From NCBI RefSeq assembly GCF_058153355.1, contig NZ_CM177019.1: a stretch of 64,000 bases of DNA, one strand, 5' to 3'. The stretch's first letter is position 1. Every line of letters begins with the position of its first letter. Shown here piece by piece: positions 247 through 9,071 of the stretch. The translations under genes and the position numbers were made by a program. Under the pieces are notes generated by a model that ran no database searches, was not told the DNA's origin, and worked only from the letters and a program-made list of their open reading frames with translations.

Positions 247-1647
247 ATGCCACATTCCTACGATTACGATGCCATAGTAATAGGTTCCGGCCCCGGCGGC
301 GAAGGCGCTGCAATGGGCCTGGTTAAGCAAGGTGCGCGCGTCGCAGTTATCGAGCGTTATCAAAATGTTGGCGGCGGTTGCACCCACTGGGGCACCATCC
401 CGTCGAAAGCTCTCCGTCACGCCGTCAGCCGCATTATAGAATTTAATCAAAACCCACTTTACAGTGACCATTCCCGACTGCTCCGCTCTTCTTTTGCCGA
501 TATCCTTAACCATGCCGATAACGTGATTAATCAACAAACGCGTATGCGTCAGGGATTTTACGAACGTAATCACTGTGAAATATTGCAGGGGAACGCTCGC
601 TTTGTTGACGAGCATACGTTGGCGCTGGATTGCCCGGACGGCAGCGTCGAAACACTAACCGCTGAAAAATTTGTTATTGCCTGTGGTTCTCGCCCTTATC
701 ATCCAACAGATGTTGATTTCACCCATCCACGCATTTACGACAGCGACTCAATTCTTAGCATGCACCACGAACCGCGCCATGTACTTATCTATGGTGCTGG
801 AGTGATCGGCTGTGAATATGCGTCGATCTTCCGCGGTATGGATGTAAAAGTAGATCTGATCAATACCCGCGATCGCCTGCTGGCATTTCTCGATCAAGAG
901 ATGTCAGATTCTCTCTCCTATCACTTCTGGAACAGTGGTGTAGTGATTCGTCACAACGAAGAGTACGAGAAGATCGAAGGCTGTGACGACGGTGTGATCA
1001 TGCATCTGAAGTCAGGTAAAAAACTGAAAGCTGACTGTCTGCTCTATGCCAACGGTCGCACCGGTAATACCGATTCGCTAGCGTTACAGAACATTGGGCT
1101 GGAAACTGACAGCCGCGGACAACTTAAAGTCAACAGCATGTACCAGACCGCACAGCCGCACGTTTACGCGGTGGGCGACGTGATTGGTTATCCGAGCCTG
1201 GCGTCGGCGGCCTATGACCAGGGGCGCATTGCCGCGCAGGCGCTGGTGAAAGGCGAAGCCACCGCACATCTGATTGAAGATATCCCTACCGGTATTTACA
1301 CCATCCCGGAAATCAGCTCTGTGGGCAAAACCGAACAGCAGCTGACCGCGATGAAAGTGCCATATGAAGTGGGCCGCGCCCAGTTCAAACATCTGGCACG
1401 CGCACAAATCGTCGGCATGAACGTGGGCACGCTGAAAATTTTGTTCCATCGGGAAACAAAAGAGATTCTGGGCATTCACTGCTTTGGCGAGCGCGCTGCC
1501 GAAATTATTCATATCGGTCAGGCGATTATGGAACAGAAAGGTGGCGGCAACACTATTGAGTACTTCGTCAACACCACCTTTAACTACCCGACGATGGCGG
1601 AAGCCTATCGGGTAGCCGCGTTAAACGGTTTAAACCGCCTGTTTTAA
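247..1647 (+). CDS. sthA: soluble pyridine nucleotide transhydrogenase
   Basis: 466-aa ORF, N-terminus [18 protein letters not shown] with GxGxxG dinucleotide-binding motif; full-length match to E. coli SthA from memory; 3' end overlaps oxyR convergently. Confidence 0.95.
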
Positions 1648-2547
1648 CACTTTATCGAAATGGCCATCCATTCTTGCGCGGATGGCCTCTGCCAGCTGCT
1701 CATAGCGGCTGCGCAGCGGTGAGCCCGGACGATAAACCAGGCCAATAGTGCGGCGTGGTTCCGGCTTAATACACGGCAAATAAACAACCCCATCGCGTTT
1801 GCGCTCCGGCGGCACAGCCAGTGCAGGCAGTAAAGTGATCCCGCTACCTGCCGCCACCATGTTGCGCAGAGTTTCCAGGCTGGTCGCGCGGAAGTGTGTA
1901 TCTTCATCCGCCCCGGCTTCAAAGCAGAAACCCATTGCCTGATCGCGCAAACAGTGACCATCTTCCAGCATCAGCAGTTTTTCCCCTGCCAGATCGGCCA
2001 TCGGTACGCATTCGCGGTTCGCCCACGGGTGATCTTCATAGATAGCCAGCAGCATTGGTTCATCAAACAATGGCACTTCAATGAATGCTTCGCTCTCTTT
2101 CACCAGCGCGAGGATCACGCAATCGAGTTTGCCGCTGTCCAGTTGCGCCAGTAACTGGTGGGTCTGTGCTTCATGCAGATACATTTCCAGCTTTGGAAAG
2201 GTCTGGTGCAGCATCGGGATAATATGCGGTAACAGGTAAGGCCCAACCGTTGGAATCAAACCAATATGCAGCGGTCCGGACATCGTCTCGCCCTGCTGGC
2301 TTGCCATCTCTTTAAGGACTTTCACCTCACGCAGCACGGTACGCGCCTGATCCACCAGCAGCATTCCCGCCTGGGTGAACAACACTTTACGGCTGGTCCG
2401 CTCCAGCAACATCACGCCCAGCTCATCTTCCAGCTTACGAATTTGCCCGCTAAGCGTCGGCTGGCTAACGTGGCAGGAGTCTGCCGCACGCCGAAAATGG
2501 CGGTGTTCAGCCAATGCCACCAGGTACTCAAGATCACGAATATTCAT
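1630..2547 (-). CDS. oxyR: LysR-family hydrogen peroxide-responsive regulator OxyR
   Basis: ORF 1630..2592 contains [44 protein letters not shown]; start trimmed to the MNIRDLEY methionine to give the 305-aa OxyR length. Confidence 0.95.
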
Positions 2548-2642
2548 TATCCATCCTCCATCGCCACGATAGTTCATGGCGATAGGTAGCATAGCAACGA
2601 ACGATTATCCCTATCAAGCATTCTGACTGATAATTGCTCACA

Positions 2643-2755
2643 GAAACGGAGCGGCACCTCTTTTAACCCTTGAAGTCACTGCCCGTTTCGAGAGTTTCTC
2701 AACTCGAATAACTAAAGCCAACGTGAACTTTTGCGGATCCCCAGGATCCGCTTTT
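2643..2755 (+). ncRNA. oxyS: OxyS small regulatory RNA, divergent from oxyR
   Basis: Sequence gaaacggagcggcacctcttttaacccttgaagtcactgcccgtttcgagagtttctcaactcgaataactaaagccaacgtgaacttttgcggatccccaggatccgc matches the OxyS sequence from memory; ends in a hairpin plus T-run. Confidence 0.85.
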
Positions 2756-2759
2756 TTTT
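2733..2759 (+). terminator. intrinsic terminator of oxyS
   Basis: Inverted repeat gcggatcc-cca-ggatccgc followed by ttttttttt. Confidence 0.8.
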
Positions 2760-2798
2760 ATTCTACAGGCCCACAGCAAGAGAGCCTGATAGTAACAG

Positions 2799-4082
2799 TT
2801 ACTCAATCCGATCTTTGACAATAAAGAAGTAACACAGCGCCCCGGTGAACGTCACACAGGCCGCGATAACCAGCGCCAGATTAAACGAGTGCGTGGTATC
2901 CACTACCCAACCGGTTACGATCGGAGCAAAGGAAGCAAAAACAAAACTGCCAAAGTTTTGAATCCCGGCGATGGAAGCCACTTTTGTTTCTGACACCATC
3001 ACCTGCACCAGTCCCCATGCAGATGTTCCCGCGAAATGCACGCAGAACAGCGCCATTGAGATAAACGCTACAGCCTGGGCTGGCGAGGAGGATTGCACGA
3101 CCAGCAACGTGCCTAATGCCGACATCATCAAACCGCAGACAATAGCCGTTTTACGCGTCTTCGCCAGGTCGTAGCCTTTTTTCGCCAGCCGATCGACAAC
3201 AATACCGTTAACCCACATCCCGACCGCCGCCGCGAGGAAAGGAATCGCCGCCACCCAACCGGTTTTCGCCAGACTGAAGCCTTGCTCGGCTTGTAAATAA
3301 CCGGGTAACCACGCGATGTAGAGCCAACCGGTATAATTGACGCCAGAGAAACCTAAAATCATCCCCCAGGTTGTCCGATGCTTAAACAGCGCCAGCCACT
3401 CGCTAAATTGTAATTGTGGACGCGGTTTAACCGGCGCGGAGAGATAGGTCCGTTCTTCGTCGGTCAGGACAAACTGCGCCCGGTTGCGATACCACGCGTA
3501 CCAACAGATCCCAACCAGAATCCCCGCCACGCCGATGATGACGAACATTGCCCGCCAGCCCCATGCCAGCTGCATCAATACAAGAGCAGGAGGCGCAATA
3601 GCCTGACCGATAACGGTAGATGAGTTAAAAATCCCCAGCGCCGTGCCGCGTTCTTTTTGCGCATACCAGTCGGTGATCGACTTTACTCCCGCAGGCATAA
3701 ATGGCGCTTCGCCAATACCCAGACCGATACGCATTAAAATAAAGTGGCTAAAAGAATTAACCATTCCTGTTAATGCCTGCATTAATGACCAGAATATTAA
3801 GCCTGCGCCTAAAACTATTCGTGGGCCAAAGCGGTCTAGCAAAATACCGGAAGGGAGTTGTGAAAAACCATAAGACAGAGAAAATGCAGAAAGCAAAACG
3901 CCAAATTCTGTCGCCGATAATCCTAACTCGCCACGAATCGCTTCGCCTGCCACGCTCAATGACGAACGGTCGAGGAAATTAACGATCCCCGCCATAAATA
4001 ATAAAACCAGCGTTACTGTCTGAATACGACGAATCCGTTGCGGTTTATTACCCGCAACACTGGTTGACACATCAACGTCCAT
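2799..4082 (-). CDS. MFS transporter, anion:cation symporter (ACS) family, probable sugar-acid (aldonate/hexuronate-type) permease
   Basis: 427-aa ORF with multiple hydrophobic helices and the NFLDR-type motif typical of ExuT/GudP/DgoT-like ACS transporters; co-oriented with the downstream ManD-like gene; substrate not inferable. Confidence 0.8.
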   Translation of the reverse strand: MDVDVSTSVAGNKPQRIRRIQTVTLVLLFMAGIVNFLDRSSLSVAGEAIRGELGLSATEFGVLLSAFSLSYGFSQLPSGILLDRFGPRIVLGAGLIFWSLMQALTGMVNSFSHFILMRIGLGIGEAPFMPAGVKSITDWYAQKERGTALGIFNSSTVIGQAIAPPALVLMQLAWGWRAMFVIIGVAGILVGICWYAWYRNRAQFVLTDEERTYLSAPVKPRPQLQFSEWLALFKHRTTWGMILGFSGVNYTGWLYIAWLPGYLQAEQGFSLAKTGWVAAIPFLAAAVGMWVNGIVVDRLAKKGYDLAKTRKTAIVCGLMMSALGTLLVVQSSSPAQAVAFISMALFCVHFAGTSAWGLVQVMVSETKVASIAGIQNFGSFVFASFAPIVTGWVVDTTHSFNLALVIAACVTFTGALCYFFIVKDRIE

Positions 4083-5848
4083 TTTTAGCTCCTTGAGCGG
4101 AATTAATCGATTTGCTGACTATTCAGAAAATAATTAAGCGAACCGTTATTACCAGTTCCACAATGTGCCATCTTCCAGTCGTGCGACGGGGAGATACGCC
4201 GGGTCATACGGATATTTCGCCGCCAGTTTCTCATCGAAAGAAATACCCAGCCCCGGTTCATCGCCTGGGTGCATATAACCTTCATCGAAGCGCCAGCTGT
4301 GCGGGAAGACTTCAAGCATTTGTTCGGAATAGCCCATGTACTCCTGAACGCCAAAGTTTGGCACCCAGAGGTCAAAATGCAGCGCCGCCGCATGACAAAC
4401 AGGCGATAAATCTGAAGGGCCATGCGAACCGGTACGTACCTGATAAAGCGATGCAAAATCGGCAATCCGTCGCATCCCGGTAATGCCGCCTGCATGGGTA
4501 ATCGTCGTGCGAATATAGTCAATCAGCTGCTCTTCGATTAACTGCTTGCAGTCCCAGATACTGTTAAACACTTCACCGACCGCAATCGGCGTCACAGTAT
4601 GCTGGCGAATCAGACGAAAACATTCCTGGTTCTCGGCAGGCGTCGGATCTTCCATCCAGAACAGGCGGTAATCCTCAATGCTCTTCCCAAAGCGCGCCGC
4701 TTCGATAGGAGTCAGGCGATGGTGCATGTCATGCAACAGATGTTCGTTAAAACCGAACTTATTACGCACCGCTTCAAATAACTTCGGTGTAAAATCGAGA
4801 TACTTTTCTGAAGACCACAACTGCTCTTCCGGCCACAGGCCTTTGGTTGCCGGTTCATACGCCAGTCCTTTGCCCTTCGCCAGGCCATAAGTTGTTTGCA
4901 TACCCGGTACACCACACTGCACACGAATCGCCTTAAAGCCCATCTGCTGGTGCTTTGCATAGTCTTCAAGGACTTCATCAATCGTGCGCCCGGTGGTATG
5001 GCAATAAACCATCACGCCTTCACGAGAAGCCCCACCAAGCAGTTGATACAATGGCATATTTGCCGCTTTGGCTTTGATATCCCACAACGCCATATCAATG
5101 GCAGAAATGGCCGACATCGTGACGGGGCCACGTCGCCAGTAAGCACCTTTATAAAAGAATTGCCAGATATCTTCGATACGGCTGGCATCGCGGCCAATTA
5201 ATTGTGGACAAAGATGATCTTTCAGATAAGAAGCGACCGACAATTCGCGACCATTTAATGTGGCATCTCCCAATCCACAAAGTCCGCTTGCAGTGGTTAT
5301 TTTAAGCGTAACGAAATTACGTCCTGGGCAAGTAACAAAAACATCTGCAGCAATAATTTTCATTATTGCAATCTCCTGTGTTGTAAATAGACGCTTCAAA
5401 CTTAATTTTACGCCTACTACCATACAAGAGAGAAAGAGCGATTATTCAACCGTGATCACATTAAAAATAAAAATTTCCGCCGAGGAGAAAAACCCCCCTC
5501 AAAAACCACCTGAATAATTAACCATCATCGTTAAAACAACACGTTAAATAATCACATAACAAACTCCATTAATCATTAAAAATGAGCGCAGCAATAGAAA
5601 TGAATTATATTCAATTAATTAAAATATGTATTGATTGATGTATTGAAAATATGATTTTCATGGGGAGAGTGAAGGTAAAGAAGACGCAAGAATAAAAAGG
5701 AATATGACAAATAATAGTTCTGGTTGGGCGTTAAATTTAAGGTCACCAGAATGCTGACAAATTTCTGCCTGAGGCAGTCCGCCTACGTAGTGTCGCTACT
5801 TTATAGGCGTGGTAAGCTCCCCATTTTCAGGGGAGCAATATAAACCAA
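4083..5848. other. boundary region of a two-gene insertion between oxyS and argH, including a 485-bp AT-rich upstream region (5364..5848)
   Basis: In the K-12 arrangement (from memory) oxyS lies directly between argH and oxyR; here two extra genes and a long AT-rich leader intervene. Confidence 0.6.
4149..5363 (-). CDS. enolase-superfamily D-mannonate dehydratase subgroup protein (RspA paralog)
   Basis: ORF 4149..5423; from [24 protein letters not shown] onward it is nearly collinear with E. coli RspA as I remember it; start trimmed to that methionine (about 404 aa). Confidence 0.85.
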
Positions 5849-7222
5849 TTACTCCAACCGCGCCTGCGCAAAAGCAATCGCCTGCGCCACCTGCTGCGGG
5901 GAGACGCCGCCTTTTGCTGCACGCTTGTCGAGGCACGATTGCAGCGACAGAATCGGATAGACATCTTCGCCAATCACCTGACTGAATTTCTGCAACTCAC
6001 TGAGCGGCAGTTCTTCCAGCGGTTTGCCCTGACGAATGGCTTCCACCACCGCTTCACCCACAATATGGTGCGCCTCGCGGAACGGCACACCTTTCGCCAC
6101 CAGGTAATCCGCCAGTTCAGTGGCGTTCGCATACCCCTGCTGCGCCGCTTCCTGGCAACGCGGACGTTTCACCTGAATCCCGTCCAGCACCAGCGCCGCC
6201 ATATGCAGGCAGTCCAGCCAGGTATCGAGCGCGTCGAACAGACCTTCTTTATCTTCCTGCATATCTTTGTTATAGGCCAGCGGCAGACCTTTCAGCGTCA
6301 TCATCATGCCAGTCAACGCGCCCTGAACACGACCGCATTTACCCCGAATCAGCTCCAGCGCATCCGGGTTTTTCTTCTGCGGCATTAATGATGAACCGGA
6401 AGTAACACGATCAGAAAGCTCCACAAAACCCGCTTCGCCGGTGTTAAAGAAAATCAGATCTTCGGCAAAACGCGACAAATGCACCATACCGATAGCGGCG
6501 GCAGAAAGCAGTTCCAGCACGTGGTCGCGGTCAGAAACGCTGTCGAGACTGTTACGGGTCGCCGAGGCAAAGCCCAGCCAGCCTGCTAACTGTTCACGGT
6601 CGATTTCATAGGCCGTTCCCGCCAGTGCGCCACAGCCTAACGGGCTGACATCCAGACGCTTAAGCGCATCCTGCAAACGGCTTTCATCACGCGCCAGCAT
6701 CTCAACATAGGCCAGGCACCAGTGCGCAAACGTCACCGGCTGGGCGCGTTGCAGGTGAGTATAACCAGGCATTACCGCGTCCTGATTATTCTGCGCGGTC
6801 TCGACCAGAGCGGATTGTAACTGTCGGTTAGCCGTCAGCAACTCGCTAACGGTATCCTTGCACCACAGTTTCAGGTCAGTCGCTACCTGATCATTACGGC
6901 TACGCCCGGTATGCAATTTTTTGCCTAACTGGCCCACTTTGTCGATCAGTTTGCCTTCCACCCAGCTATGGATATCTTCGGCGTCGCTTTCAAGAATTTG
7001 TTGTGGCCTGGCGCGAACATCTTCCAGCAGCACGTTCAGCGCCTCTTCCAGTTGCGCCTGCTCTTCTGCGGTTAACACGCCGACCGTGACCAGGGCTTTG
7101 GACCAGGCCACAGAGCCAACAATATCCTGCTCCGCCAGACGGTAATCAAAGCGCAGTGAGTCGTTGAATTGTTTGAACCGTTGATCTGCTGCCTGGGTAA
7201 AACGCCCGCCCCAAAGTGCCAT
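5849..7222 (-). CDS. argH: argininosuccinate lyase
   Basis: 457-aa [47 protein letters not shown]; fumarate-lyase family signature [12 protein letters not shown] present. Confidence 0.96.
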
Positions 7223-7282
7223 AAATCTGTTTCCTTATTTTGAAATTCAATGCCGGAAAGCTACGTCTCCGGCTAACAAAAC

Positions 7283-8059
7283 TTAAGCTAAAATCCGCGT
7301 ACCCATCGGCATACCGTTAAACAGTGCCGGAAGTTGTTCCGCATGACGCCAGGAGGCGATATCTACCGGGCGACCCAGCGTGCGCGCAGCGTCCAGCGCC
7401 GCGTTCACTTTCACTATCATGCCGTCAGTAATAATGCCCTGCTCAATCAGTTGTTCTGCTTTCGCTGCGGTCATTTCGGCAATACGTTGTCCTTTGCCGT
7501 CGAGAATACCGCTGACATCAGAGAGCAAAATCAGATCCGCGCCCAGCGTTGCCGCCAGCGCCGTCGCCGCCTGGTCAGCATTGACGTTCATCAGTTGCCC
7601 TTCGTCCGTTACGCCAATGGAGCTGACCACTGGTAGATAACCGTTTTCCAGCAACGTGTTGATAAGCTTAGGCGAACCTGGCTGCGCCAGTCCAACATGG
7701 CCTAACTCTTCATCGAGCTGGGTCACTTTTACGCTGTCGCCGTCACCGAGAAACAAACCTACGGCTGCAATCTGATGTTTCTTCGCCCATGCCAGCAGGG
7801 TTTTATTTGCCGTTCCCGCCAGCGCTCCGGTGATAATGTCTATCTGATCCGCAGGCGTCACCCGCAGGCCGTTTTTCTTTTTCACCGGCAGATTCAGTCC
7901 TTTCATCAGCTCATCCACCACGCAGCCGCCGCCGTGGACAATCACCAGCGGACGCTGATGTGACTCGCGATAATTCACCAGGGCGCTAAACAGACGTTCC
8001 AGCGCCTCTTCACTATCCAGCAGTACGCCGCCCAGTTTGATAATTAATGGATTCATCAT
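7283..8059 (-). CDS. argB: acetylglutamate kinase
   Basis: ORF 7283..8092 contains [45 protein letters not shown]; start trimmed to give 258 aa. Confidence 0.95.
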
Positions 8060-8066
8060 TGCACCC

Positions 8067-9071
8067 CTAAATAAGAGACTGCGTTTCCGCATAGCCGAAA
8101 CGAATATTGGCGCACTGTACCGCTTGTGCTGCCGCGCCTTTCAATAAGTTGTCTTCGGTCGCCACAATAATCAGATGTTCCCCCTGAACGGCAAAACCGA
8201 TATCGCAGAACGGCAGCCCGACGACATTTTTCAGCGCCGGAACGCCTTTGTCATACAACCGTACCAGCGGTTTATGGGCATACGCCTGCTGTAACGCTTG
8301 CGCGACTTGCGCCTGGTTCACGCCAGGCTTCAGGCGGCAGGTAATGGTTTCGAGAATGCCGCGCGGGAAATTGCCCAGATGCGGGGTAAAAATAACGTCA
8401 GCACCGAGATGCGTGGCGATCTCCGGCTGGTGGCGATGGGTAAAGACACCATACGGTTGCAGGCTAACTTCACAAAAACTATTTGAAATCGCTGCCTTAC
8501 GTCCTGCTCCGCTCACACCACTGGTGGCGTTGATAACCGGCCACTGATTGAGGTCAAGAAGATCGGCATCAATCAACGGTTTCAGCGCCAATTGCGCCGC
8601 CGTCGGATAACAGCCAGGCACCGCAATTAAGTTCGCTTCTTTTAATTTATGACCGCACCACTCCGCCAGACCGTAAGCTGCCTGTTCCAACAGTTCCGGG
8701 TATTGATGGCTAAAGCCGTAATATTTTTCATAGAAGGTGGCGTCGTTAACACGAAACGCGCCGGAAAGGTCGAACACCACACAGCCCGCTTCAAGAAATT
8801 GTGGCGCTAAATCGTGACTAACTTCATGGGCAGTAGCAAGAAACACCACGTCCACCCCTGGGCTAAACTCACTGATATCCGACATCGGCTGCAACGGCAG
8901 ATCAACGATGCCTTTTAGCTGCGGATGCAAATCGGAGATTAACTTTCCCGCATCATTGCTTTGCGCTGAAACAGTCAAAGCGGTTATGTTCATATGCGGA
9001 TGGCGATTTACATAGGTCACTAGCTCTGCGCCAGCGTAACCGCTGGCACCCACAATCAGCGTATTCAACAT
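8067..9071 (-). CDS. argC: N-acetyl-gamma-glutamyl-phosphate reductase
   Basis: 334-aa [46 protein letters not shown]; matches E. coli ArgC. Confidence 0.95.

Follow-up and report, generated by a model that had tools for sequence, protein, structure and literature searches.

The interval between oxyS and argH in the stretch of DNA analyzed here (the window, 64,000 nucleotides of contig NZ_CM177019.1 from NCBI RefSeq assembly GCF_058153355.1) holds, at positions 2753-5848, two co-oriented minus-strand genes in place of the 54-bp spacer of K-12. The pair probably forms a bicistronic unit for the uptake and dehydration of a sugar acid, which was relocated to this site early and was later lost in K-12-like lineages. 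By its sequence, the pair is a fragment of an rspA-MFS unit that moved to this site; about 110 bp of an rspA-type promoter came with it, and half of the RspR operator has been lost. The genes themselves are already known, as RefSeq annotates 'MFS transporter' and 'manD' in thousands of genomes, CFT073 included; searches of the literature on the argH-oxyS locus turned up no account of the pair.

Organization of the argH-oxyS interval

An initial annotation had described a co-oriented transporter-dehydratase pair between oxyS and argH with a long AT-rich leader, and had placed oxyS of K-12 directly between argH and oxyR. The layout of the locus bears out this description:

2643 to 2752, plus strand: oxyS small RNA (Rfam RF00035, 137.4 bits; gathering score 75), left boundary of the variable segment
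2733 to 2751: hairpin of the oxyS terminator; eight T follow it (terminator scan)
2753 to 2798, minus strand: 46-nt tail from the MFS stop codon to the oxyS terminator (direct sequence reading)
2799 to 4082, minus strand: MFS transporter, 427 aa (Pfam MFS_1, TIGR00893, DgoT structure 6E9N)
4149 to 5363, minus strand: manD dehydratase, 404 aa (NF043051, NF011654, Pfam, 4IL2)
5364 to 5848, minus strand: leader upstream of manD, 485 bp, 35% GC
5364 to 5475, minus strand: rspA-type promoter region (alignment to five native rspA upstream regions)
5373 to 5377, minus strand: manD ribosome-binding site, AGGAG
near 5393, minus strand: predicted transcription start (by homology)
5399 to 5404, minus strand: predicted -10 element, TAAGTT (by homology)
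5422 to 5427, minus strand: predicted -35 element, TTGTAT (by homology)
5422 to 5431, minus strand: degenerate RspR box, TCTCTTGTAT (alignment)
within 5445 to 5460, minus strand: CRP-like TGTGA motif (alignment)
5476 to 5760, minus strand: AT-rich upstream leader (composition, 32% GC)
5765 to 5836, minus strand: argH-proximal end of the segment, with a REP-like remnant (5765 to 5787) and the hairpin GCTCCCCTGAAAATGGGGAGC (5816 to 5836) (alignment)
5849 to 7222, minus strand: argH (argininosuccinate lyase), right boundary (ORF list, annotation of homologous loci)

In K-12-type genomes (KLY, L001), the 54-bp spacer alone separates the oxyS terminator from the argH stop codon, and strain JNU and O157:H7 have the identical short spacer. 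Sequence comparison showed that identity to K-12 stops immediately past the T-run of the oxyS terminator, and that the last codon of argH encodes E in the window and G in K-12. The oxyS gene is convergent with the MFS gene, and direct reading of the 46-nt tail between them revealed no separate GC-rich terminator for the latter; 43-44 of the 44 aligned bases of this tail are matched in CFT073, Escherichia sp. E1V33, and E. whittamii, and Citrobacter sp. R56 has a hairpin of its own at this position. At the opposite end, the hairpin at 5816-5836 is probably the structure in which argH ends on its 3' side. The adjoining element, which we take to be REP-like from the REP consensus, is represented in alignments of other Escherichia by a fuller copy, GGATAAGGCGTTTACGCCGCATCAGGCAG.

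The dehydratase is a paralogue of RspA

The manD product begins with MKIIAADVF; an alternative, upstream-extended start giving 424 aa is supported neither by homologues nor by the RefSeq annotation. The protein scored 731.5 bits against the NCBIfam ManD equivalog NF043051 (cut-off 550) and 806 bits against NF011654, and matched the Pfam families MR_MLE_N (N-terminal capping domain, PF02746, 117 bits) and MR_MLE_C (barrel, PF13378, 156.7 bits). It shares about 90% of its residues with 4IL2, the structure of CFT073 RspA (E = 5e-270), and its identity to E. coli RspA is about 90-92% over the full length. Native E. coli rspA lies elsewhere, in the order ynfA-rspA-rspB without an MFS gene, so that it is flanked by ynfA and rspB and followed by rspB, whereas manD of the window sits between argH and oxyS and is followed by the MFS gene. 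The argH-locus gene is therefore, as read from sequence, a paralogue of native rspA encoding an RspA-type ManD of the enolase superfamily, in agreement with the close relationship to RspA and the ManD subgroup proposed in the initial annotation.

The residues R147, Y159, D212, H214, E238, E264, R285, and H314 are all present. Among them are the metal-binding acidic residues D212, E238, and E264, whose absence the initial annotation would have taken as evidence against its reading; the motifs that contain them, HDMHH, WMEDP, and VGEVF, are kept in 4IL2, in 4E4F, and in the C. salexigens ManD 3OW1. Rakus et al. (2007) reportedly numbered the metal ligands D210 and E236 (2QJJ numbering). The signature of the ManD subgroup, R147, Y159, E262, and R283 in 2QJJ numbering (PMC4570537), corresponds here to the R147-Y159 base dyad, E264, and R285, and the shift of +2 agrees with the 2QJJ alignment range. 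Two further comparisons had been proposed at the outset. In the ManD phylogeny, the clade formed by the argH-locus proteins branches outside all native RspAs, and synonymous divergence between this manD and E. coli rspA is saturated (dS 1.8). In the loop at 150-180, the protein is nearly identical to RspA, including the CFT073 protein of the rspAB operon (4IL2), with identical catalytic residues, and its loop sequence resembles that of the RspA class. Eight fixed substitutions distinguish the two proteins, among them M161L beside the catalytic Y159; the 147-185 loop and the catalytic residues are otherwise the same.

The transporter is a relative of DgoT in the ACS family

The MFS gene is preceded by a ribosome-binding site (AAGGAG, inside the motif located at 4080-4094), and its 1284-bp CDS is labelled 'MFS transporter' in RefSeq. 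The protein matched Pfam MFS_1 (PF07690) with 191 bits. Its best NCBIfam match was TIGR00893 (2A0114; ACS, TC 2.A.1.14), at 275.3 bits and below the cut-off of 395, so the protein is a family-level ACS relative that is left unnamed by the NCBI rule. Its top PDB match was the DgoT structure 6E9N (E = 4e-57, full length), and the ACS-family assignment made initially therefore stands, with DgoT as the best solved relative. In DgoT, the E. coli D-galactonate:H+ symporter (6E9N/6E9O, SLC17/ACS), D46 and E133 are involved in proton coupling, R47 and Y79 in carboxylate binding, and Q164, Q264, S370, and N393 in hydroxyl recognition (PMC6532931). The proton-coupling and carboxylate-binding residues are all conserved in the MFS protein when aligned to 6E9N (as D38, E125, R39, and Y71, respectively), as are R126, W373, and N393 of DgoT. 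At the hydroxyl-recognition sites, Q164 is replaced by T156, Q264 by F245, and S370 by G352, and N393 (N376) alone is retained; the carboxyl-coordinating Y44 is replaced by F. An assignment as the DgoT (D-galactonate transporter) orthologue was rejected, given the changes at three of the four hydroxyl-reading residues and at Y44 and the TIGR00893 score below cut-off. The homology predicts a proton-coupled sugar-acid importer.

The gene pair corresponds to part of native rsp clusters

Orthologues of both genes were found in the native rsp cluster of at least seven other enterobacterial genera, as mapped by tblastn and ORF lists of loci L007-L022, and the two are adjacent except in Atlantibacter. 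These clusters contain rspB (a Zn-dependent dehydrogenase), a ydfJ-like MFS gene, a ydfI-like fructuronate reductase gene, a ydfH/rspR-like gene for a GntR regulator, ydfG, and speG; NCBIfam assignments were to RspB (PRK10083, 639-648 bits), the fructuronate reductase family (676 bits), YdfG, SpeG, UxaC, and GPH. The native pair is likewise adjacent and co-oriented, and its products are 82-89% (MFS) and 91-94% (ManD) identical to those at the argH locus. The gene order is rspA-MFS-rspB-ydfJ-ydfI in Lelliottia, Siccibacter, and Enterobacter sp. kpr-6, and MFS-rspA in the native clusters of Raoultella, Pluralibacter, and Klebsiella; the rspA-then-MFS order in the window matches the Lelliottia/Siccibacter type. 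In contrast to the native clusters, the argH locus has the first two genes only, with no adjoining RspB, YdfI, YdfJ, or RspR, and the upstream 370 bp are unrelated.

Binding of RspR is directed to the box ATACnnGTAT, and rspA transcription starts 30 nt upstream of the ATG (PMC8249747). Allowing up to one mismatch, a search for this box found nothing in the leader, and the degenerate box is visible by alignment only: five native loci have ATACTTGTAT at this position, compared with TCTCTTGTAT in the window, E1V33, and E. whittamii, and AATCTTGTAT in Citrobacter sp. R56. The intact operator that overlaps the -35 element at native rspA has thus lost its left half at the argH locus. The surrounding promoter core is homologous to that of rspA, and the TGTGA motif and CTTGTATGGTAGTAG are invariant across the argH-locus sequences and five native rspA upstream regions in the alignment. 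A strict consensus scan found no sigma-70 promoter upstream of manD, and the hexamers predicted by homology are weak, each agreeing with the consensus at three of six positions. Of the CRP-like site, the TGTGA half alone is conserved, and inspection of the leader by eye, without scoring, gave no convincing match to KdgR, ExuR/UxuR, or full CRP palindromes. The predicted sigma-70 promoter is weak and probably depends on an activator (the CRP-like TGTGA is near -60); transcription from it would have largely escaped repression by RspR.

Farther upstream, the AT-rich leader had no homologous sequence in native rsp loci or in the K-12 spacer, and it was found at the argH-oxyS locus only, in 1867 E. 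coli genomes. Within it, the block TAACGTGTTGTTTTAACGAT (5527-5546) is kept in alignments as far out as Citrobacter sp. R56. A permissive Rfam search (E <= 1) of positions 2700-5900 returned oxyS alone and no known RNA element in the leader. Short leader ORFs of 36-58 aa were considered as genes and found no support.

The segment is old and vertically inherited in Escherichia

Of 5426 complete E. coli genomes, 1860, CFT073 among them, have the same two-gene arrangement and 66% lack it, consistent with the accessory module proposed initially. No match was obtained in the genomes that represent E. albertii, E. fergusonii, E. marmotae, E. ruysiae, and Salmonella in GTDB, a result that counts against the order of events proposed below. 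The initial annotation had called the pair an insertion, a term that holds as a description relative to K-12. As a statement of recent gain, in which an E. coli lineage with a K-12-like spacer acquired a two-gene islet horizontally, it is largely refuted, and we regard that history as highly improbable. It would account for the absence of the pair from K-12, O157:H7, and two thirds of the complete genomes with one identical short spacer, for the AT-richness of the leader (32-35% GC), and for the fact that the closest relatives outside Escherichia belong to other genera. Those relatives, however, are only 87-94% identical in protein sequence and saturated at synonymous sites. The two ORFs are alone in the segment, and the ORF list contained no integrase, IS element, transposase, or tRNA target; a repeat search found no target-site duplication, terminal inverted repeats, or flanking direct repeats at 2753 or 5848. 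The GC content of the two genes (50-51%) equals that of the whole window (51%). On these same grounds, a mobile genomic island was rejected.

Divergence within Escherichia also opposes a recent gain. A single collinear HSP of 5.7 kb covers the locus at 94% identity to Escherichia sp. E1V33 and 92% to E. whittamii, cryptic Escherichia clades in which the arrangement at the locus is the same, and dS values for manD and the MFS gene (0.16-0.38) match those of the flanking argH, oxyR, and sthA (0.27-0.39). At the same site, Citrobacter sp. R56 carries the MFS gene and an internally deleted manD, a decayed copy that is more diverged than its flanks. These sequence data indicate that the segment is old and vertically inherited in Escherichia, an ancient resident that was lost or replaced in K-12-like lineages. 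Because the dS of the segment matches that of the flanks, the cryptic clades share the arrangement, and a decayed copy exists in Citrobacter, the K-12 state is more likely a loss than the long allele a gain. Simple inspection gives no path from one allele to the other, since the K-12 spacer has no homology to any long-allele locus (blastn-short) and the leader has none to native rsp loci. A copy of the two leading genes of an rspA-MFS-rspB-type operon would have entered the space between argH and oxyS ahead of the Escherichia radiation, and possibly ahead of the split between Escherichia and Citrobacter; loss, or replacement by the 54-bp spacer, would have followed in K-12-like lineages.

Purifying selection on both genes is strong (dN/dS 0.011-0.035 for manD and 0.011-0.027 for the MFS gene, over dS of 0.1-0.38), with constraint equal to that on argH, oxyR, and sthA. 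This argues against a silent leftover operon fragment without a physiological role, for instance one bound by H-NS through its AT-rich leader, weakly promoted, lacking a regulator of its own, and in the course of being lost. Such a relic would fit the loss of the pair from most E. coli genomes, the truncated MFS gene of DSM 101139, the deleted Citrobacter manD, the half-destroyed operator, and the weak predicted promoter, and authors who studied RspA-type ManDs are said to have considered them possible evolutionary relics. The reading frames are nevertheless intact in the window, CFT073, KCJ3K291, R32_14_1F, and two cryptic clades, and conservation is high in both the promoter core and the 46-nt tail; we therefore consider a relic improbable.

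Predicted function of the gene pair

For a unit of sugar-acid uptake and dehydration, the MFS protein would bring in D-mannonate, or one of its precursors (for example L-gulonate), by symport with protons, and ManD would dehydrate D-mannonate to 2-keto-3-deoxy-D-gluconate (KDG), probably with a low, RspA-like efficiency. Core KdgK and Eda would then turn KDG into pyruvate and glyceraldehyde-3-phosphate. RspA-type ManDs are reportedly low-efficiency enzymes without a demonstrated physiological role (Wichelecki et al. 2014). In the glucuronate pathway of E. coli, the canonical D-mannonate dehydratase is UxuA; it carries out the same reaction with KDG as product, but it belongs to an unrelated protein family outside the enolase superfamily and is part of the core hexuronate system regulated by UxuR/ExuR. 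E. coli thus has UxuA for D-mannonate already, which counts against the proposal. The standard route leads from D-mannonate to KDG and on through KdgK and KdgA/Eda (PMC6353982).

The initial annotation had held that the substrate is not established by sequence, and we agree. The importer may serve another aldonate (L-gulonate, D-gluconate, L-idonate, or another acid sugar) for enzymes encoded elsewhere, such as native RspB, YdfI, or UxuB, or the specificity of ManD may have shifted. In the native clusters, the pair sits with the RspB dehydrogenase and a fructuronate reductase, a set that would start from L-gulonate rather than D-mannonate, and a cryptic L-gulonate pathway in CFT073 was reportedly described by Wichelecki et al. 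in 2014. The altered hydroxyl-recognition residues of the transporter, N393 excepted, and the eight substitutions in ManD point in the same direction. The RspA-like loop and catalytic residues speak against a shifted specificity, and the two-gene unit alone completes a pathway for D-mannonate or D-gluconate only, the two substrates to which, to our knowledge, documented dehydration in the ManD subgroup is limited. A different substrate is accordingly rather unlikely in our estimate, and the unit is read here as one for sugar-acid uptake and dehydration. The stronger proposal, that the pair is a functional second route from an aldonate to KDG that escaped RspR control, is also unlikely.

Implications

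Taken together, these comparisons correct a likely misreading of the argH-oxyS interval, which is an old variable locus and not a fresh island, and they provide an example of an operon fragment relocated with its promoter, its repressor site having been lost. No new kind of biology is involved, and the substrate question is common to the whole RspA class. The reference uropathogen CFT073 has two RspA-type dehydratases, native RspA and the argH-locus copy, and studies of rspA knockouts have to reckon with the second. If the pair is a functional second route, two RspA-type ManDs are present in CFT073 and in a third of all E. coli strains, and the missing physiological role of the 'low-efficiency' RspA-type dehydratases could be due to this redundancy or to a shift in the specificity of the MFS-ManD pair. 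Carriers could then gain a niche advantage on L-gulonate or D-mannonate derived from the host or its diet.

Organization and distribution of the argH-oxyS module

The initial annotation had placed a co-oriented transporter-dehydratase pair with a long AT-rich leader between oxyS and argH (2760-5848) and had held it to be missing from K-12. Both points were borne out, because the layout was confirmed and because the K-12 derivative KLY carries only a 54-bp spacer from the oxyS terminator T-run to the argH stop codon; the same 54-bp spacer is found in strain JNU and in O157:H7.

Features of the locus (ORF list, except oxyS)
247-1647, plus strand, sthA
1630-2547, minus strand, oxyR with the RefSeq-type 305-aa start
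2643-2752, plus strand, oxyS (Rfam RF00035, 137 bits)
2799-4082, minus strand, MFS ORF, 427 aa
4149-5363, minus strand, dehydratase ORF (manD), 404 aa
5364-5848, gene-free stretch (leader) of 485 bp between manD and argH
5849-7222, minus strand, argH, with argB and argC coming next

The two genes of the pair are separated by 66 bp. By composition, the gene-free stretch has a GC content of 35% (32% in its core, 5476-5760), manD and the MFS gene 50-51%, and the whole window 51%.

At least 80% of window 2593-5900 is present in 1860 of 5426 complete E. coli genomes, which agrees with the accessory status proposed for the pair, and RefSeq labels the genes uniformly in these 1860 genomes as 'MFS transporter' and 'manD: D-mannonate dehydratase ManD'. 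The number of genomes with the leader is 1867, and in each of them it lies at the argH-oxyS locus. Both exact protein sequences are public, each on at least 1000 contigs, and CFT073 shows the order argH (c4919), manD (C_RS23255), MFS gene (C_RS23260) and oxyR. The pair is ordinary and annotated already, and a literature search returned no discussion of the manD and MFS genes of the argH-oxyS locus. CFT073 also carries a further two-gene accessory pair, an M20 aminoacylase and a citrate-proton symporter, in its sthA-fabR interval (L027:30897-33422); this pair is missing in strain JNU, and the window begins at sthA.

Properties of the dehydratase and the transporter

The manD product starts with MKIIAADVF (404 aa), which is also the RefSeq start, scores 731.5 bits against the NCBIfam ManD equivalog NF043051 (cut-off 550) and 806 bits against NF011654, and carries both enolase-superfamily Pfam domains. 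Its closest solved relatives are RspA of E. coli CFT073 (4IL2, E = 5e-270, ~90% identity) and 4E4F; because 4IL2 is the native RspA of CFT073, that strain has two RspA-type ManDs. The acidic metal ligands of the enolase superfamily are present (D212, E238, E264), as are the ManD-specific dyad R147-Y159 and the residues H214, R285 and H314, and the functional residues are kept too in the C. salexigens enzyme 3OW1. The ManD subgroup signature is R147, Y159, E262 and R283 in 2QJJ numbering (PMC4570537). Family scores, the 4IL2 match and the residues agree with the earlier assignment of the dehydratase as a close RspA relative within the ManD subgroup. Only eight fixed differences separate the module ManD from native RspAs (V4I, H61S, R137K, E140Q, M161L, N361E, K369E, E375S), and its 147-185 loop is otherwise RspA-like. 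By analogy, the enzyme most likely falls in the low-efficiency D-mannonate class, in which RspA-type ManDs were reportedly placed by Wichelecki et al. in 2014.

The transporter is an MFS_1 protein (Pfam) whose best family is TIGR00893 (ACS family; 275 bits, under the 395 cut-off) and whose best structure match, over its full length, is the D-galactonate:H+ symporter DgoT (E = 4e-57). Residue roles in DgoT, including proton coupling (D46/E133) and carboxylate binding (R47/Y79), were taken from the literature (PMC6532931) and mapped onto the alignment. The window protein shares these coupling and carboxylate residues with DgoT, together with the pocket or gating residues R126, W373 and N393; however, Y44, Q164, Q264 and S370, which act in carboxyl coordination and galactonate hydroxyl recognition, are replaced by F, T, F and G. 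On this mapping the protein is not an orthologue of the galactonate transporter and is predicted to be a proton-coupled carboxylate (sugar-acid) importer.

Relationship to native rsp clusters

An MFS scan with one genome per species returned 21 loci. The order argH-manD-MFS-oxyR was also found in Escherichia sp. E1V33 and E. whittamii, and the contig of Escherichia sp. MOD1-EC7003 shows MFS-oxyR-sthA and breaks off inside manD. Citrobacter sp. R56 has an intact MFS gene at the same site, with manD present as a promoter and an internally deleted open frame, so that the module has decayed at this position in a genus other than Escherichia. In that frame (L020:7588-7950), approximately the first 29 codons are fused to the last ~30 (MKIVGTEVFMTCPGRNF...).

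Orthologues of the MFS protein (82-89% identity) and of ManD (91-94%) lie in the native rsp neighbourhood of Enterobacter, Lelliottia, Siccibacter, Atlantibacter, Pluralibacter, Raoultella, Klebsiella and another Citrobacter, and are adjacent in all of these except Atlantibacter. This neighbourhood, beside speG, contains rspB (PRK10083, 639-648 bits), a ydfJ-like MHS-type MFS gene, a ydfI-like fructuronate-reductase family gene (676 bits), a ydfH/rspR-like GntR regulator, ydfG and, in some cases, uxaC with a GPH transporter. In E. coli itself the rsp locus reads ynfA-rspA-rspB, then a prophage integrase, and lacks the MFS gene. In a contig titled Chryseobacterium sp. 18061, the rsp locus is enterobacterial and almost the same as in Citrobacter sp. 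18056, which probably reflects a wrong assembly label or contamination.

Upstream of manD, 110 bp can be aligned with the rspA promoters of five native loci, and TGTGA and CTTGTATGGTAGTAG are invariant in the rspA/manD promoter alignment.

Predicted expression signals of the module
near 5393, predicted start site, placed by homology with the mapped start of rspA
5399-5404, minus strand, predicted -10 TAAGTT
5422-5427, minus strand, predicted -35 TTGTAT
5445-5460, CRP-like TGTGA, near -60
ahead of manD and of the MFS gene, ribosome-binding sites

The pairing in native clusters and the promoter homology suggest that the module arose by relocation of a copy of the leading gene pair of an rspA-MFS-rspB-type operon. 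The RspR box, ATACnnGTAT, overlaps the promoter (PMC8249747). All five native loci read ATACTTGTAT at its position, the three aligned Escherichia copies from the argH locus read TCTCTTGTAT, and Citrobacter sp. R56 has AATCTTGTAT. The module appears to have arrived with the core promoter, but its RspR repressor site is damaged and half-lost. The AT-rich 370 bp further upstream had no counterpart in the native rsp loci compared.

Within the leader, conservation of the block TAACGTGTTGTTTTAACGAT (5527-5546) extends to Citrobacter sp. R56, with two changes; the block matched none of the nameable motifs compared and could be the site of an unrecognised regulator. At 5765-5787 other Escherichia copies have the REP-like palindrome GGATAAGGCGTTTACGCCGCATCAGGCAG, of which a 13-nt deletion has left a remnant in the window, and E. 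whittamii and E1V33 carry extra REP-like sequence by the argH hairpin.

Age, selection and recombination

The pair had been described as an insertion, which holds relative to K-12 but probably not as a recent event. The window aligned with E1V33 and E. whittamii in a single collinear 5.7-kb HSP (94% and 92%), and dS of manD and the MFS gene (0.16-0.38) matched that of argH, oxyR and sthA (0.27-0.39). Third-codon divergence from Citrobacter sp. R56 was 55% for the MFS gene and 38-45% for the flanks, the module ManD clade fell outside all native RspAs in the tree, and dS between module manD and E. coli rspA was saturated at 1.8. The module has no integrase, IS element or tRNA, and a repeat search found no boundary repeat. 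Taken together, these comparisons argue against recent insertion and favour long residence at the site, followed by loss or replacement in K-12-like lineages. This polarity is tentative: the 54 bp of the short allele share no sequence with the long allele, and representative genomes of several other Escherichia species and of Salmonella gave no hit in the MFS scan.

Constraint on manD (dN/dS 0.011-0.035) and the MFS gene (0.011-0.027) equals that on the neighbouring core genes. Among the Escherichia copies examined, the only disrupted frame was in E. coli DSM 101139 (L029:1706-2713), where the MFS gene is cut to 1008 bp (335 aa); 335-aa partial MFS sequences also occur in a public protein cluster, and these truncated copies indicate ongoing loss of the transporter in some E. 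coli lineages.

The argCBH allele of the window (5849-9071) diverges to an unusual degree: it is 94-96% identical to K-12 and R32_14_1F and reaches at least 99% identity in no more than 3 of 5425 E. coli genomes; sthA and oxyR are ~98% identical to K-12. R32_14_1F carries a near-identical module (MFS 100%, manD 99.6%) beside an argH of 95.8% identity, and the divergence of argCBH against this near-identity implies a putative recombination breakpoint within the AT-rich leader or close to it.

Transcription and proposed function

Reading of the sequence found no terminator of the MFS gene's own before the convergent oxyS terminator, and MFS transcription would run antisense into oxyS unless that terminator is bidirectional. 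The 46 nt that follow the MFS stop up to the oxyS terminator (2753-2798) form a tail in which 43-44 of the 44 bases aligned are identical from E. coli to the cryptic clades, whereas the leader is only 86-91% identical across them. In Citrobacter sp. R56 a GC-rich hairpin of its own takes the place of this tail.

We propose that the weak promoter would yield one manD-MFS transcript and that the transporter would take up the putative substrate, either D-mannonate itself or a precursor; L-gulonate would be one such precursor, and native RspB together with YdfI or UxuB could convert it. ManD would then form KDG, and the core enzymes KdgK and Eda would complete the pathway, a KDG route that has been described (PMC6353982). 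Altogether, the original reading of the pair was judged correct and the finding real; the additions made here, namely an apparently relocated rsp fragment, a half-lost RspR operator, a probably ancient presence/absence polymorphism and purifying selection, are useful context rather than a surprise.
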